NCBI GenBank assembly: GCA_033762295.1
Contig: JANRLW010000069.1
Location: 32,001 to 96,000, forward strand
DNA from: Capsulimonadales bacterium
GTDB lineage: Bacteria > Armatimonadota > Armatimonadia > Armatimonadales > Armatimonadaceae
Reading direction: 5' to 3'
Length of the DNA stretch: 64,000 nucleotides
Shown: in pieces, positions 14,649 through 20,490 of the stretch
Numbering within the stretch: position 1 is the stretch's first letter
How the letters are laid out: each line of letters begins with the position of its first letter
Notes under the pieces: generated by a model
Told to the model about the DNA's origin: nothing
Seen by the model: the letters and a program-made list of their open reading frames with translations, nothing else
Database searches by the model: none
Translations under genes and position numbers: made by a program

Positions 14649-16241
14649 ATGCCTTCGGAACCACACCCGAAAAAGAGAACGCCGGCAGCTTACTGGTCTC
14701 CCGCCCGGTCGATCGCGCTCGGGGTCGCCGGTCTCGCGTTGATCAGTGCGGGAATCGTCAGTCTGGTCCAGCGGCGAACCCGTGACAAATATCTGGAGGA
14801 GCAGCAGCGTCGACGCGAACAGGAGGTCATCGCTCTGGTGAACGCGGAACGGTTCCGTCTGGCGTCCGAAGCGGTCAACGGACTGATTTACGACTGGGAC
14901 CCGGAGACCGGCGCGGTGCTGCGGACACGCGGTCTGACCGAACTGCTCGGATATCTGGGCCGGGAGGATCAGGATACGATGGCCTGGTGGCGGGAACAGA
15001 TTCATCCGGAGGATCGGGAGCGTGTGGCCGCCGCGTTCGAAGCGGTCCGGGATCATCATCGTCCCTCGTTTGAGATCGAATACCGCGTTCGCCACAAATC
15101 GGGGCAATATGTCCGCCTTCAGGACCGGGGCGTGATTCTGCGCGATGCCGGCGGAAAAGCCGTCCGCGTCGTCGGTTGCAGTATCGATGTCACCGCCCGG
15201 TATGAAGCCGAAAGGGCGCTTCGCTACAGCGAGGAGCGTCTGCGTCTGGCGGTCACCGGCGCGGACCTCGGCACATGGCACTGGAACCTGCGAACCGATC
15301 GCTTCGAACTGTCGGATCGTTGTCGGCGACACTTTGGCATCGCCCCGGAGGAGGAGGTGGATTCGGAACGGTTCTTTCGCGCCGCTCCCTCCGACGATCG
15401 GGAATGGGTCCGCGCGGCCGCGTTGCTGGCGATCGAGCAGGGGCAGGATTTCGACGTGGAACATCGTGTGGTGCTGCCGGACGGATCGTTTCGGTGGCTG
15501 GCCGTTCGTGGACGCGCCCATGCCGATGAAGCCTCGGTACCGATGAGCATGGAGGGGATCGCTCTGGACGTGACGGAACGCCATCTGGCGCTCTCGGAGA
15601 TCGAAAAGCTCAACGTCCGCCTGCAGCGAGCGATGGCGGAAAGCCACCACCGGATCAAGAACAACCTGCAAACGCTGGCCGCCCTGGCCGAAATGCAATC
15701 GTTCCACCAGGACAATACGGTTCCCCGCGAGGCGTTCGAGCGGCTCTGTCAGCATATCCGGACTCTGGCCTCCCTTCATGACCTGTTGACGCTGGAAATC
15801 CGGGAGTTCCGGGAGGTGGAAACCGTGTCGGTTCGGAATGCGCTGAACCGTCTGACCGATCTGCTCTCGTCCGTGACCGGGAATCGAACCGTGCTCGTCG
15901 ACAGTGAAGAGGCGCGTCTGCCATTGAAACAGGCCGGTTCCTTCTCCCTGCTGGTGAACGAACTGGTTTCCAACGCGGTGAAGCATGGCGCGGGGGATAT
16001 TCGAATTCGTCTTCGAACGACGGCGGATCGGATCAACGGACAGCGTCCGACCGCCCTGCTCGAGGTGACCGATGAAGGGGCGGGTTTCCCCCCCGGTTTC
16101 GACCCGCGAGTGGCGGCGAATACCGGGCTGGAACTGGTGGAGAGTATCGGCTGCTGGGACCTGCAGGGCGCGGTCGCCTACGAAAATGCGCCCGGCGGCG
16201 GCGCGATGGTCCGGGTATCGTTCCCGCTTCAACCGGTCTGA
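14649..16241 (+). CDS. PAS-PAS sensor histidine kinase, HisKA_2 type (EutW/PdtaS-like kinase core)
   Basis: One TM, two PAS/PAC domains (IHPEDRERV, EYRVRHKSG, EHRVVLPDGSFRW), H-box SHHRIKNNLQ, N-box NELVSNAVKHG, DEGAGF and GLELV. Confidence 0.92.
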   Translation: MPSEPHPKKRTPAAYWSPARSIALGVAGLALISAGIVSLVQRRTRDKYLEEQQRRREQEVIALVNAERFRLASEAVNGLIYDWDPETGAVLRTRGLTELLGYLGREDQDTMAWWREQIHPEDRERVAAAFEAVRDHHRPSFEIEYRVRHKSGQYVRLQDRGVILRDAGGKAVRVVGCSIDVTARYEAERALRYSEERLRLAVTGADLGTWHWNLRTDRFELSDRCRRHFGIAPEEEVDSERFFRAAPSDDREWVRAAALLAIEQGQDFDVEHRVVLPDGSFRWLAVRGRAHADEASVPMSMEGIALDVTERHLALSEIEKLNVRLQRAMAESHHRIKNNLQTLAALAEMQSFHQDNTVPREAFERLCQHIRTLASLHDLLTLEIREFREVETVSVRNALNRLTDLLSSVTGNRTVLVDSEEARLPLKQAGSFSLLVNELVSNAVKHGAGDIRIRLRTTADRINGQRPTALLEVTDEGAGFPPGFDPRVAANTGLELVESIGCWDLQGAVAYENAPGGGAMVRVSFPLQPV

Positions 16242-16250
16242 GGCGGTCCG

Positions 16251-16294
16251 AAACGAGAAGGGGCATCCTCCGGTGAGGATACCCCTTCTCGTTT
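16251..16294. terminator. Probable bidirectional intrinsic terminator between the convergent kinase and sigma genes
   Basis: AAACGAGAAGGGGCATCCTC-cggt-GAGGATACCCCTTCTCGTTT, a 20-bp inverted repeat with one mismatch. Confidence 0.8.
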
Positions 16295-16333
16295 GTGTGT
16301 TTCTTTCTCTTTTCGCGTTGCCGGATCGCGTCG

Positions 16334-17002
16334 TCAGGCGACAAACGCCGTGCGATGCGCCTGAAGTTTCCGCAGAAGCGCCTGGCGGGCGCGGTTCAGC
16401 CGGGACTTGACCGTCCCGATCGGCACCTGTGTCATCTCCGAAATCTCCTCGTAGCTGCGCTCTTCCAGATAGAACTGGGAGAGAATTTCCGCATGCAGCC
16501 CCGGCAGTTTGGCCAGCGCTCTATGCAGGATGTCGCGCTGTTCCTGCTCACCGACCAGGGTCAGCGGCGATTTTTCCTTGCTGTCGATAAACGGCAGGGA
16601 GGAGGCGTCCGTGTTTTCGGTCAGCGCCTCGAGGGATACGGCCGGGCACTTTTTCGCGCTTCGGCACATATCGTAAAACGTATTCACCACGATCCGGTTC
16701 ACCCAGGCGGGAAGGGTCACTGCCGACTTGCACTTGTTGATGTTCTGGCACACGCGAAGGATCGCGGCGGCGGCCACATCACTGGCATCGTCGTAGTTCC
16801 CGGCCAACCGGTACGCCAGGGCGTAGATCGGTCGCTTGAACCGGGCGATCAGCGCGTCCATTGCGCCTTTGTCGCCCTTCTGGCACCAGGCAACGATCTC
16901 GGCGTCGCTCATACGCTCGTAGGAGCGGAATCGCGGGCGTGCCGAATCGCCATTCATGGAGGTCGTATTCTGTCCGATATTCGAGGTGGTCAGCGTTTGC
17001 AT
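16334..17002 (-). CDS. ECF (group 4) RNA polymerase sigma factor
   Basis: Region 2 (IYALAYRLAGNYDDASDV...AWVNRIVVN) and region 4 (SYEEISEMTQVPIGTVKSRLNRAR); AAGGA upstream of the ATG. Confidence 0.92.
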   Translation of the reverse strand: MQTLTTSNIGQNTTSMNGDSARPRFRSYERMSDAEIVAWCQKGDKGAMDALIARFKRPIYALAYRLAGNYDDASDVAAAAILRVCQNINKCKSAVTLPAWVNRIVVNTFYDMCRSAKKCPAVSLEALTENTDASSLPFIDSKEKSPLTLVGEQEQRDILHRALAKLPGLHAEILSQFYLEERSYEEISEMTQVPIGTVKSRLNRARQALLRKLQAHRTAFVA

Positions 17003-17218
17003 CGTCTTTATCCTTCTAAAGGGAGGATTCCGCCGAACGGTCCCTTCGGATGCCCATTAATCGGCATTCCGTGGACACTGCGGAAAAAGGAGTCAGACTA
17101 CCTGGCCTGAAAGGGATTGCATGACGGACAGGGCCATACAAATCGAGCGGTCTCCGGTCGCCGTCCCCGGCTATTCCGGGAAACCATATATGTAATCCGC
17201 TACGGTAGCGCCGCAGCC

Positions 17219-17280
17219 AAAAACAAAAAACGCCTGAACTGCAACGAAAGGGGCAACGAGCCCCAATTGCAACTCAGACG
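17219..17280 (-). terminator. Intrinsic terminator (attenuator) inside the ECF sigma 5' leader
   Basis: Minus-strand RNA CGUCUGAGUUGCAA...UUGCAGUUCAGGCG (14 bp including 3 G-U pairs, plus an inner GGGGC/GCCCC stem) followed by UUUUUUGUUUUU. Confidence 0.8.
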
Positions 17281-17324
17281 ATCCTGGCCTGATGTACTCT
17301 GTCGGACGATCCTGGCCCGACAGA
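17274..17324 (-). promoter_or_regulatory. Dual-hairpin RNA element (candidate ANTAR-type antiterminator target)
   Basis: UCUGUCGGGC-CAGGAUC-GUCCGACAGA, 5-nt linker, UCAGGC-CAGGAUC-GUCUGA. The 3' arm of the second hairpin is also the start of the terminator's 5' arm. Confidence 0.7.
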
Positions 17325-17372
17325 AGATATGTAGTTTTCAAAGATGCGGCGCGTTGAGCGTGCTGTTATAAG

Positions 17373-17399
17373 TGACGTGACCCGCGAAAGTTTTGTTCC
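17373..17399 (-). promoter_or_regulatory. Candidate ECF-type promoter GGAAC-N17-CGTCA
   Basis: Reverse complement of gttcc (17395-17399) and tgacg (17373-17377), directly upstream of the leader hairpins. Confidence 0.55.
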
Positions 17400-17622
17400 C
17401 GAAAGAGATCGACATTTTTCGTGTTCTTGTGAAATGAATCCATCCGTGTCAGTCGGCCCCGGGCGGGACACCCTGCCCGAGGCCATTGGGTGCGTACGGT
17501 CGGCGAGGACGGTGATTGCCCCGCATAAAAGGTCGTTGCCTTCCCGCATCGGGTTCCGTCCTCCGACGTCCGGGCGCAAGTTCCCTTCCGGAACCCCGGG
17601 TATTCGTTCGGGTCGATGGAAC

Positions 17623-17631
17623 TGGTATACT
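17623..17631 (+). promoter_or_regulatory. Extended -10 (TGGTATACT) for the ANTAR regulator
   Basis: TGn-TATACT about 40 nt upstream of ATG 17673. Confidence 0.5.
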
Positions 17632-17672
17632 AATGATCATTCGAAAATCGAAACGATGTGCAAGAGGGATGT

Positions 17673-18266
17673 ATGAGTGAAACGACTCCCCGTCTCAAGG
17701 CGTTGATCTGCGAGGATGAAGGCATGACCGTCATTCTGTTGCAGCGCGCTTTGCAGGCTGCCGGTTATGAAGTCGTGGGAAAAGCCGTGGAGGGCGCACA
17801 GGCGGTGGAACTGGCACGCTCGACGCAACCCGATTTCATTCTGATGGATATCAATATGCCGGGGATGAACGGGATCGAATCCACGCGGTTGATTACCGCC
17901 GAACGATCCGTTCCGATTATCATGCTTACGGCCTATAGCGAGGATAAGCGGGTGGATGAGGCGATCGACGCCGGCGCTTGCGCTTACCTGGTAAAGCCGA
18001 TCACCAGTACCCAGTTGATTCCGTCCTTACGTACGGCTCTTGCCCGTTTCGAGGCGCTGAACGATATCCGTAAGGAAAATCAGGATTTAAAGGACCAACT
18101 GGAGACGCGAAAACTCGTCGAACGCGCCAAAGGCATCCTGCAGCAGCGGACCGGCCTGACGGAGGCGGACGCTTTCAAGCGGATTCAAAAGGTCAGCCGG
18201 GACAAATGCCAACCGATGCGCCAGACCGCCCACGAGATTATTGAAGCGGATTCGTTGTTTTCCTAG
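17673..18266 (+). CDS. REC-ANTAR response regulator (PdtaR/EutV/AmiR-NasT-like)
   Basis: REC domain (CEDE, ILMDINMPGMNG, MLTAY, YLVKP), coiled coil, then ANTAR (LETRKLVERAKGILQQRTGLTEADAFKRIQKVSRD). Confidence 0.93.
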   Translation: MSETTPRLKALICEDEGMTVILLQRALQAAGYEVVGKAVEGAQAVELARSTQPDFILMDINMPGMNGIESTRLITAERSVPIIMLTAYSEDKRVDEAIDAGACAYLVKPITSTQLIPSLRTALARFEALNDIRKENQDLKDQLETRKLVERAKGILQQRTGLTEADAFKRIQKVSRDKCQPMRQTAHEIIEADSLFS

Positions 18267-18297
18267 GTCGCTCCGGCTATCCTCGGGGTTTTGGCTG

Positions 18298-18306
18298 TGC
18301 TATAAT
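18298..18306 (+). promoter_or_regulatory. Extended -10 (TGCTATAAT) for ferredoxin
   Basis: Perfect TGn-TATAAT about 70 nt upstream of the ATG. Confidence 0.6.
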
Positions 18307-18374
18307 CACGACAGTCCGCCCGCCGACGGAGTCAAGATGCCTGGCGAGAAGCGGACATCATCCCGGAGGAAACG

Positions 18375-18617
18375 ATGCCCTACATCATTACCGAGCCGTG
18401 CATCGGTGTCAAAGACAAGAGCTGTGTCGCTGTCTGCCCCGTTGACTGCATCCACGGCGGCGACGACGATAACCAGCTGTTCATTGATCCCAGCGAATGC
18501 ATCGACTGCGGTCTCTGTGAGCCGGAATGCCCGGTGGATGCCATCTTCATGGAAGATGAAGTCCCGGACAAGTGGAAAACCTATATCCAGCTCAACGCCG
18601 ATTACTACAAAAAGTAA
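18375..18617 (+). CDS. fdxA: Dicluster (7Fe-type) ferredoxin
   Basis: CIGVKDKSCVAVCPVDC and CIDCGLCEPECP motifs; GGAGG RBS. Confidence 0.92.
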   Translation: MPYIITEPCIGVKDKSCVAVCPVDCIHGGDDDNQLFIDPSECIDCGLCEPECPVDAIFMEDEVPDKWKTYIQLNADYYKK

Positions 18618-18679
18618 AGGGTTCAGGGGCGGCCGGAACGTTCCGACGAACGCCGCCGCCCTTATTTACGGTTGCCGTC

Positions 18680-19150
18680 ATGTCTTCCCGTGAACGGACA
18701 TCCTCCTTGCCGGAGTTCCCCCTGGTGGCCCGCGTTCGAGTCCGCACATATGAACTCGATTCCTTCGGGCATGTGAATAATGCCGTTTATCTCCAGTATC
18801 TGGAGGAGGCGCGTTCGGAATACCTTCGACAGATGGGGCTTTCCTTCCGGGATTTTTCCGTTCATGGTGTGCAGATCGTCATCGCGGAGGCGACAATCCG
18901 CTATCTGTCCCCGTTGCGTTACGGAGATTCGGCCCGGATCGAAGGACGGATAACGGCGTTGCGCCCGGTCTCGGCCAATTTTGAGTATCGCCTGATCCGC
19001 GAGGACGGAGAGGAGCGGATCGCCGAGGCGAGCACGCGCGGCGTATTCGTTCGTGCCGAATCCGGACGCCCGACCCGTGCGCCGCAGCCGTTTCGCGAGG
19101 CGTTTGCCCGGTTTACCGGCGAAAGGAGCCTGACCCTCGATGCTGAATAG
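18680..19150 (+). CDS. Acyl-CoA thioesterase (4HBT/YbgC hotdog family)
   Basis: ELDSFGHVNNAVYLQYLEEAR motif. Confidence 0.9.
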   Translation: MSSRERTSSLPEFPLVARVRVRTYELDSFGHVNNAVYLQYLEEARSEYLRQMGLSFRDFSVHGVQIVIAEATIRYLSPLRYGDSARIEGRITALRPVSANFEYRLIREDGEERIAEASTRGVFVRAESGRPTRAPQPFREAFARFTGERSLTLDAE

Positions 19151-19802
19151 GTTATTTCGCAAGTATCGCGTTTCCGAAGTACACCTCTGCCTTCCCTTTG
19201 TCCAGATCACGATGGAAAAGATGGCCGAGGAGACCACGATCGTCCCGCCTACGGCATCGGTCCCCGCGCCCCCCGACCCGCCGTCGCCGTTGCAGGAGCG
19301 GTGCGCCGCACCGTCCGACGTCGTTCGACTGGCGGTTCGGGAGCGGCCCGCCGCCGGGGAAATCGCGGTCGTTCCGGTATCCGATGAACTGTATACCGAT
19401 CTGGCGTTTCGCGTCGCCTCCCAGGTCGACCATTTCGGGCCGGTTTTCCCTCCGGAATGGCGGCCCCTTTCGTCTGGCCCGGAACTGCGGCCCGGCGATT
19501 ACCTCTGGGTCCGGCTCTATTGTCGGAACCGGAGCGAACGGGTGCTGCACCATGTGCGCATCGCGTTCGAAGGGATGGAAATCGCCCGGAAACAGGCGGG
19601 AATGCTGGTCCGGGGGGTAAACGGATGGCCCCGTATCCCGGTGCGCGACTGTTTCGCCGGTCAGGAGGTGCGCCACCTGAACCCCGGAGACGATTACTCG
19701 CTCCATTGCGTGCTTCGGGTTCCGCCGGATATCTTCGCTCGCCCCGCCTCCGCCTTCTCCGGCGTCAGGCTCGATTTTACCATTCTGAAGCAGATGCACT
19801 AA
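19140..19802 (+). CDS. Hypothetical protein
   Basis: Co-oriented with and abutting its neighbours; start uncertain (19140 or about 19211). Confidence 0.55.
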   Translation: MLNRLFRKYRVSEVHLCLPFVQITMEKMAEETTIVPPTASVPAPPDPPSPLQERCAAPSDVVRLAVRERPAAGEIAVVPVSDELYTDLAFRVASQVDHFGPVFPPEWRPLSSGPELRPGDYLWVRLYCRNRSERVLHHVRIAFEGMEIARKQAGMLVRGVNGWPRIPVRDCFAGQEVRHLNPGDDYSLHCVLRVPPDIFARPASAFSGVRLDFTILKQMH

Positions 19803-19812
19803 GGGGGCGGAC

Positions 19813-20490
19813 GTGCCGCTTTTTCTCACGGTTCACACCCTGACGCCGGGAGAACTCTCCGAGGAGCGGATTCGAGAGATTGCGATCCTCGGGCAAACGG
19901 ACCCGATCGTGCGCGGTTACCGGAGTTTTCATAGTCCGCTGGAAGGACGACTCGTCTGGCTGCTGGAAGCGCCGGACAAAACGGCGGTGCTGACCTGGTG
20001 CGCTGCCGTGGGACTGCCCGTCGATGGGGTCACGCAACTGGAGATCGAAGGGCATCGGGGCAGCCTTCGACGCTACGCGATCACGATCCCGAACCGGATT
20101 GCCGGAACGGTCGTCGATATCGTCACCGACCCGACCATGCGTCTGGTGCGTATCGACGCCTCCGGACTTTCGCTCTACGCGGCGCACAGCCGAACCGGAG
20201 CGGAGGCCCCGGACCTGCGAATCGGGGACGTACTACTCGCCCTTTTCAAGGCGATCCATCTGCATATCGAACGAGGAACCGGAATGCAACTCAGTTTTCC
20301 CAATCAGATCAAGGGCCGGGTCACCAACATCGTCCGGGGACCGGCCATGACGCTGGTTTACCTGGACACGCCGGTCGGCGAACTGGTCTCGGCATTGATC
20401 GCGCCGGCAGTGGAACGCCTGAATGTCGGTGTGGGTGACGAAGTCATCGCCGTTTTCAAGGCGACCGATGTCTCTCTGGCCCGGGAGTAA
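19813..20490 (+). CDS. DUF4242-like N-terminal domain fused to two TOBE (Mop-like) domains
   Basis: N-terminal GRLVWLLEAPDKTAV...GLPVDGV; C-terminal NRIAGTVVDI...FKAIHL and NQIKGRVTNIVRG...GDEVIAVFKATDV. Confidence 0.75.
   Translation: MPLFLTVHTLTPGELSEERIREIAILGQTDPIVRGYRSFHSPLEGRLVWLLEAPDKTAVLTWCAAVGLPVDGVTQLEIEGHRGSLRRYAITIPNRIAGTVVDIVTDPTMRLVRIDASGLSLYAAHSRTGAEAPDLRIGDVLLALFKAIHLHIERGTGMQLSFPNQIKGRVTNIVRGPAMTLVYLDTPVGELVSALIAPAVERLNVGVGDEVIAVFKATDVSLARE

Follow-up and report, generated by a model that had tools for sequence, protein, structure and literature searches.

A tandem-hairpin leader with seven-nucleotide loops, a probable ANTAR-type attenuator of an ECF sigma factor gene

The 64,000-nt stretch of Capsulimonadales DNA analyzed here (the window) carries on its minus strand two short tandem hairpins with identical CAGGAUC loops, followed by a terminator and an ECF-type sigma factor gene. 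This element is most likely the leader of the sigma factor gene, a transcription attenuator of the ANTAR type in which the canonical loop is replaced by a 7-nt variant with C as the first and G as the fourth base. The second hairpin and the terminator are mutually exclusive, the paired architecture covaries between species, and the motif co-occurs with an ANTAR protein subfamily, a member of which is encoded beside it in the window. The features and their coordinates are compiled in Table 1.

Table 1. Features of the leader region and of the neighboring genes (positions refer to the window).
Feature	Position	Strand	Details	Basis
P1 hairpin, copy A	17324-17298	minus	10-bp stem, 7-nt loop CAGGAUC; UCUGUCGGGC[CAGGAUC]GUCCGACAGA	sequence, MFE
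P2 hairpin, copy A, proposed antiterminator	17292-17274	minus	6-bp stem, 7-nt loop CAGGAUC; UCAGGC[CAGGAUC]GUCUGA	sequence
Intrinsic terminator hairpin	17280-17231	minus	15-bp outer stem (17280-17266 paired with 17245-17231, ViennaRNA) and 5-bp inner hairpin	folding
U-run	17230-17219	minus	UUUUUUGUUUUU	sequence
Copy B, second and weaker twin motif	17145-17091	minus		model R1
P1' hairpin of copy B	17141-17117	minus	UUGUAUGGC[CCUGUCC]GUCAUGCAA	
P2' hairpin of copy B	17110-17093	minus	UCAGGC[CAGGUA]GUCUGA	
ECF-type sigma factor gene, proposed target	17002-16334	minus	downstream of the leader	Pfam, NCBIfam
REC-ANTAR response regulator gene, proposed hairpin reader	17658-18266	plus		Pfam
PAS-PAS-HisKA_2-HATPase sensor kinase gene	14649-16241	plus	convergent with the sigma factor gene	Pfam

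The stem of P1 extends to 11 bp if a flanking U-G pair is counted. P1 and P2 are separated by the 5-nt linker GUACA (five columns in the alignment A6 described below), which falls inside the 2–25 nt given for the linkers of known ANTAR targets in the accessible text of PMC8164766; the two tandem stem-loops have stems of 10 and 6 bp, the criterion being at least 3 bp per stem. The inner hairpin of the terminator was flagged as terminator-like. P2 and the terminator overlap by 7 nt, the last base of the P2 loop and the entire 3' arm of P2 being reused in the 5' arm of the terminator. In the minimum free energy (MFE) structure calculated with ViennaRNA for 141 nt (−52.9 kcal/mol), P1 and the 15-bp stem are present and P2 is absent, and forcing P2 to form incurred a penalty of 9.2 kcal/mol. 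The z-score of this fold was −3.66, with 1 of 200 shuffled sequences being as stable. The element was assigned to the minus strand because of its G-U pairs, the U-run, the downstream gene and the score of the covariance model, which was 61.7 bits on the minus versus 6.2 bits on the plus strand. A preliminary description of this DNA had placed twin hairpins with identical loops and the GUACA linker at the same positions, had taken the 3' arm of P2 as the start of a terminator stem that excludes P2, and had fixed the strand by the G-U pairs; these assignments were all confirmed, the outer stem comprising 15 bp in the fold.

Both hairpins contain the 12-mer GCCAGGATCGTC. The window has two copies of it, and the 5.16-Mb genome has 10. 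Among the 1303 CAGGATC sites of the genome, 41 are located in hairpins with stems of 4 bp or more, of which the P1/P2 pair is the sole twin. The arrangement exceeds chance expectation. Positions 15000–20000 had no counterpart in Rfam at E values up to 10.

Covariance model R1, built without copy B, was run on the genome itself and returned copy A (61.7 bits) and copy B (30.9 bits, E = 1.7e-4), all other matches having E > 0.6. Copy B had been missed in the preliminary description. No terminator competes with P2' in copy B; P2' is retained in the MFE structure, and the fold is ordinary (z = −1.40). The CU-rich tract CUCCUUUUUCC directly after P2' is predicted by the MFE structure to pair with the Shine-Dalgarno region (AGAAGGA) of the sigma factor gene (16995–17092, minus strand; z = −1.40), and copy B may have a role in translation.

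The response regulator gene is oriented divergently from the element, with 333 nt between its start and P1. Its product matched Pfam Response_reg (E = 1.3e-27, 96.6 bits, cut-off 30.2) and ANTAR (E = 1.1e-19, 70.3 bits, cut-off 27.3); the genome has three ANTAR genes. On the other side, 216 nt separate the terminator of copy A from the start codon of the sigma factor gene, with copy B in between. The sigma factor matched Pfam Sigma70_r2 and Sigma70_r4_2 and NCBIfam TIGR02937 (81 bits, cut-off 42.9), and it was classified as an ECF (group 4) protein by the presence of regions 2 and 4 only and by its match to the ECF superfamily model; no equivalog model matched it at its own cut-off. The Atlas protein clusters nearest to this sigma factor are mostly those of Verrucomicrobiota. 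An anti-sigma gene follows the sigma factor gene neither in the window nor in the loci of three relatives. The HisKA_2-type sensor kinase is a candidate partner of the REC-ANTAR regulator, as suggested by the position of its gene only, and HisKA_2 kinase genes also adjoin the sigma factor gene in the genomes G009 and G006b.

No sigma-70-type promoter was found in 16300–18300. A GGAAC-N17-CGTC sequence at 17399–17374 (minus strand), about 50 nt upstream of P1, resembles ECF-type promoters; it was discarded as a promoter candidate, since two such sequences occur in the window versus 3.75 expected by chance. In the same-family relatives L029, L030, L057 and L031–L033, the stretch from the ANTAR stop codon to the twin hairpins contains, upstream of P1, a sigma-70-like promoter (TTGAC.-N17-.ATA.T, recognized by eye) and an extra conserved hairpin. 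The window has neither of the two.

When the intergenic DNA was compared with 61 related genomes, only two short and weak matches were obtained outside its own genome (E = 4.4e-4 and 5.2e-3), and homologues were therefore found via the proteins. Eight homologues of the regulator with 59–64% amino acid identity were identified in seven genomes of the same family, all other matches having ≤47% identity; a search of a collection of genome contigs yielded no orthologue, and the generic receiver-domain relatives found there (≤52% identity) were mostly partial. All eight same-family loci present, on one strand, the ANTAR gene, a twin hairpin, a long hairpin with a U-rich tail that overlaps P2, and a sigma factor homologue. 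The latter begins around 20–40 nt past the long hairpin and shares 33–40% identity with the sigma factor of the window (three were confirmed also by Pfam). The P1 loops of these loci read CAUGAUC, CAUGGUC, CAUGAUU, CAUGACC or CAUGACU, and the P2 loops CAGGAUU, CAGGAUC, CAAGAUU or CAUGUCC; the P1 loop of G010 has 8 nt.

Model R1 applied to the 71 genomes of the order returned the genomes already known and one false match inside an ORF. One more genome, G104 from a different family, came from a sample of 151 genomes of the phylum; its motif lies, with an overlapping terminator, before a sigma factor homologue (43% identity), and an ANTAR gene is located 2.4 kb upstream. In the 68 genomes of the order of G104, model R2 gave a match in 9, and model R3 in 28 at E ≤ 0.01, 15 of them at E ≤ 1e-4. 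The genome G150, from a third family, has the ANTAR gene (50% identity), the motif, the terminator and the sigma factor gene in that order. The scan of the genome and its relatives with covariance models has in this way recovered copy B and leaders in further families, and the leader spans two or more orders of the phylum.

At 22 of the 29 motif loci examined, the window included, the motif precedes an ECF sigma factor homologue. Three others precede a gene for a small membrane protein of the Transgly_assoc family, two have a leader of the Transgly_assoc type with no gene recognized in the available DNA, one precedes a penicillin-binding-protein gene, and one lies about 600 nt ahead of an ANTAR gene. 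Two to four copies of the motif are present in some genomes; in the 21 sigma-linked loci other than that of the window, a single copy with its terminator stands directly before the gene. Several matches were rejected as motifs: L154, L156 and L069 are false or doubtful, being located in or over long ORFs, L165 and L173 lie inside ORFs, L164 comprises P1 only, L174 is doubtful, and L228 and L229 have no sigma factor or ANTAR gene nearby.

The loci L205, L209 and L210 (also L208 and L212) form a second target class, in which twin hairpins and terminator are separated from the Transgly_assoc (GlsB/YeaQ-like) gene by 300–400 nt containing recurrent AAUA(A/G)CGGCA-like words. In G116, two copies of the motif (C50:91364-91418, minus strand, and 93006-93061, plus strand) point apart within 1.6 kb, one before a sigma factor gene and the other before a transglycosylase/transpeptidase (PBP1-type) gene. 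The sigma factor and the regulator of the window are 52% and 70% identical to those of G116, which belongs to another order (L171/L175), versus 33–40% and 59–64% within the family (L028–L034); P2 and the terminator start of the window also resemble those of G222. Judged from these sequences, the greater closeness to another order could reflect gene transfer or distinct paralogue lineages.

Covariation was evaluated in two alignments. In the first, with 8 sequences, 97.7% of the cells were paired and five pairs showed double changes, and none of 500 shuffles reached the observed covariation. In A6, which comprises 17 sequences with 34 loops, 94.5% of the cells were paired (P1, 92.9%; P2, 97.1%) versus 31.8–46.9% in controls with slid partners, and 41 double-change cells were counted versus 14.3 in shuffles, again reached by 0 of 500. 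Compensatory changes were found in 7 of the 10 P1 pairs. By a weaker measure, the number of pairs with a double change, the result was 8 versus 6.4, a value reached by 51 of 500 shuffles. The preliminary description had read the differences between the P1 and P2 stems within the one sequence as compensatory; such differences are not covariation, and the real covariation is that across species.

The loops follow a common rule. In A6, a length of 7 nt is shared by 32 of 34 loops, the exceptions being the 6-nt loop of P2' in copy B and the 8-nt loop of P2 in G104. Position 1 is C and position 4 is G in all 34, the 6-nt and 8-nt loops included; A at position 1 was confined to the P1 loops of two additional matches, L209 and L210. 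None of the 17 aligned elements departs from G-C, G-U and C-G as the three closing pairs of P1. The exclusivity of P2 and terminator is likewise a property of the family: the MFE structure exchanges P2 for the long downstream hairpin in 17 of 18 elements, copy B of the window being the exception, and the cost of forcing P2 ranged from 7.9 to 32.3 kcal/mol. The elements of G017 and G242 have no clean U-run.

The best solved relatives of the regulator are Rv1626 (1s8n, E = 1.5e-46) and EutV (6wsh/6ww6, E = 2.7e-32). In the EutV-RNA structure, as described in the accessible text of PMC8934654, the sole base-specific contact is that of the flipped-out G4 stacking on Tyr164, A1 makes no contact, Met172 plugs the loop, and Arg168, Asn173, Arg175 and Arg177 contact the RNA backbone. 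The residues aligned with EutV Tyr164, Arg168, Met172, Asn173, Arg175 and Arg177 in the regulator of the window are Phe, Gln, Arg, Asp, Cys and Pro. Thus, the RNA-contact set of EutV is not kept and the aromatic residue alone is retained, a pattern seen throughout the subfamily. We compared 38 subfamily proteins (≥53% identity) with 29 ANTAR proteins outside the subfamily, all taken from one set of genomes. At the positions of Met172-Asn173, the subfamily has Arg-Asp in 36 and Arg-Ala in 2 of its 38 members, with Cys or Ser at the position of Arg175, versus Met-Asn in 24 of the 29 paralogues, which keep Arg at Arg175; the G150 protein (50% identical) also has Arg-Asp. From the alignment, we infer that these residue changes may set the loop preference. 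A scan of the genome for twin A..G.. hexaloops, as potential targets of the Met-Asn paralogues, gave 579 candidates, 31 with a U-run, and was abandoned as too noisy.

Motif and subfamily occur together. In the order of the window, the eight genomes with an ANTAR orthologue are the same eight that have the motif (seven detected by model and G010 by eye, the latter scoring 22.5 bits with R3). In the second order, an orthologue was found at E ≤ 1e-52 in 29 of 68 genomes; the motif at E ≤ 1e-4 was present in 15 genomes, all of which carry the orthologue, and in none of the 39 genomes lacking it, counts that overstate the evidence because the genomes are related and not independent. Eight of these 15 genomes were in the seed of R3, but had been found by R2, which is blind to proteins. 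Matches with E values between 1e-4 and 0.01 fell in four genomes with and nine without the orthologue. Of the 29 second-order genomes with an orthologue, 10 had no match to the motif at E ≤ 0.01, many of their assemblies being incomplete and the filters strict. The ANTAR gene is adjacent to the motif in the window, in all eight same-family loci and in G104, G226, G242, G223 and G150; in several genomes, and often so in the second order, the two are on different contigs. The similarity to ANTAR-target attenuators noted in the preliminary description is thereby borne out by the regulator gene next to the element, by the conserved and covarying architecture and by the co-occurrence with the subfamily. 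Its further idea of a new ANTAR specificity class gains indirect support, at the level of sequence comparison, from the 7-nt C1/G4 loops and from the Arg-Asp versus Met-Asn distinction.

Three other readings were weighed. The preliminary description had pointed to the GGA in both CAGGAUC loops as a hint at CsrA/RsmA, and GGA in a hairpin loop resembles high-affinity CsrA sites; the 106-nt terminated RNA, a unit ending in its own terminator, would then either sequester CsrA as a small RNA or be a leader under CsrA control. Across the family, however, GGA is present in just 12 of 34 loops (P1, 2 of 17; P2, 10 of 17), the invariants being C1 and G4, and the motif tracks the ANTAR subfamily instead. 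In addition, a search of the 94.5%-complete genome for the CsrA family PF02599 was negative, whereas the control search detected it in 3 of 14 reference genomes. We consider a CsrA-based reading extremely improbable, and the GGA hint was not upheld. Copy A and its terminator might also serve mainly as a stand-alone decoy small RNA that titrates the ANTAR regulator, as EutX/Rli55 does for EutV, with copy B acting on the sigma factor mRNA. Such a division of labor would fit the position of copy B between the end of copy A and the start codon, and the P1' stem of copy B is nearer to the same-family P1 than that of copy A; but the other 21 sigma-linked loci manage with one copy and its terminator, copy B has an ordinary fold and no competing terminator, and a separate promoter for the sigma factor gene was not found in 16300–18300. 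A decoy as the main function is very unlikely on these grounds, and a decoy function would be compatible with attenuation.

The leader could, finally, be an attenuator that responds to temperature, to a small ligand or to some other, unknown RNA-binding protein, in which case the ANTAR gene would be a mere neighbor. The departure of the loops from the A1/G4 hexaloop rule and the frequent location of the second-order ANTAR gene on a contig other than that of the motif speak for a different reader. The ANTAR gene is nevertheless adjacent in the window, in 8 of 8 same-family loci and in five further genomes, and the orthologue is present in 15 of 15 genomes with a strong motif. The 57-nt core is probably too small for a ligand pocket, and dual short hairpins, an invariant G4 and the overlap of P2 with the terminator are the design of ANTAR targets as far as it is described in the accessible text of PMC3369931. 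We regard a non-ANTAR reader as unlikely and favor an ANTAR-type attenuator.

In the mechanism that we propose for the ANTAR-type attenuator, P1 and subsequently the long terminator would form when no signal is present; since the P2 conformer is less stable than the terminator by about 9 kcal/mol, transcription would stop at the U-run, ahead of the sigma factor gene. Upon a signal, a HisKA_2-type kinase would phosphorylate the adjacent REC-ANTAR regulator, the dimer of which would bind the P1 loop and then the P2 loop, keeping P2 closed. Because a closed P2 withholds 7 nt of the 5' arm of the terminator, the polymerase would read through and the sigma factor would be made. The recognition unit would be the 7-nt loop, in which C1 and G4 are invariant and which is closed by GGC/GYC, and it would be read by the ANTAR subfamily with Arg-Asp and Cys/Ser at the positions of EutV Met172-Asn173 and Arg175. 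We see an even chance that this amounts to a distinct ANTAR specificity class, in which a protein block (Met172 to Arg, Asn173 to Asp and Arg175 to Cys/Ser) is matched by an RNA block (7-nt C1/G4 loop and fixed GGC/GUC closing stem), a natural orthogonal pair gating an ECF sigma factor and small stress proteins. The pair would be orthogonal because canonical Met-Asn ANTAR paralogues are present in the same cells.

Known ANTAR targets comprise two short hairpins with hexanucleotide loops containing A1 and G4, the second of which overlaps a terminator, according to the accessible parts of PMC3369931 and PMC8164766. The dual-hexaloop antiterminators among them (EutV/eutP of Enterococcus faecalis, NasR/nasF and AmiR/amiE; Ramesh et al. 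2012, PMC3369931, accessible text) share with the present leader the tandem short hairpins, the short linker, the overlap of P2 with the 5' arm of the terminator, the invariant G4, the ANTAR regulator nearby and the occurrence of several copies in some genomes, as a regulon. Unlike them, the present family has loops of 7 instead of 6 nt (32 of 34) starting with C instead of A, three sequence-invariant closing pairs in P1 and, as its target, either an ECF sigma factor or a small membrane protein of stress type, whereas the former control nitrogen, amide and ethanolamine operons. Two defining features of ANTAR targets, the six-nucleotide loop and A1, are absent here, and the geometry and G4 are kept. 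Actinobacterial ANTAR RNAs are described in the accessible text of Mehta et al. 2021 (PMC8164766) as hexaloops acting mostly on translation, whereas an overlapping terminator is the rule here. Our literature search found no paper linking ANTAR to ECF sigma factors or describing 7-nt loops, although the supplementary tables of the 2012 and 2021 surveys could hold such loci; a word search in the accessible text of a 2025 review gave no occurrence of ECF, hexaloop or PdtaR.

On the protein side, the closest solved counterpart is the PdtaS/PdtaR system of Mycobacterium tuberculosis, PdtaR being Rv1626. PdtaS is a HisKA_2-type kinase, and such a kinase is also encoded near the regulator of the window. 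At the two loop-plug positions, Rv1626 has Met-Asp in the alignment and the subfamily described here has Arg-Asp. The placement of HWE/HisKA_2 kinases upstream of an ECF sigma factor is also reminiscent of the PhyR-NepR-EcfG system of Alphaproteobacteria, as are the stress-type genes nearby or in the regulon (here CsbD, BON and Transgly_assoc). This is a resemblance of logic only, drawn partly from general knowledge: PhyR-NepR-EcfG operates by protein partner switching, whereas RNA antitermination without PhyR or NepR is proposed here.

ANTAR regulators are known mainly from the control of nitrogen, amide, ethanolamine and mycobacterial lipid metabolism. The A1/G4 hexaloop rule used to search for ANTAR targets overlooks the present leader family. 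If the reading as a specificity class is true, a two-component system, an antiterminator and a sigma factor would form a cascade that may be the general stress response of the phylum, and a sigma factor, hence a whole regulon, would be under RNA antitermination in a poorly studied soil and water phylum. The recognition rule for ANTAR would widen to G4 and loop geometry rather than A1, and the pairing of protein residues with loop shape would be testable and usable for orthogonal antiterminator switches.

Two minor observations concern signaling genes. Downstream of the sigma factor gene at L152/L153 (G009 and G006b), genes for a CHASE3-HisKA kinase, a stand-alone receiver and a receiver-HisKA_2 kinase form a convergent cluster, with CsbD-like and BON-domain genes nearby; from its gene content, this cluster looks like a phosphorelay feeding a stress response. 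In the genome of the window, but outside the window itself, an ORF at G000:C85:60428-60802 is 64% identical to the receiver half of the regulator (residues 12–136), the match not extending to the ANTAR part, and by sequence it may be a stand-alone receiver paralogue.
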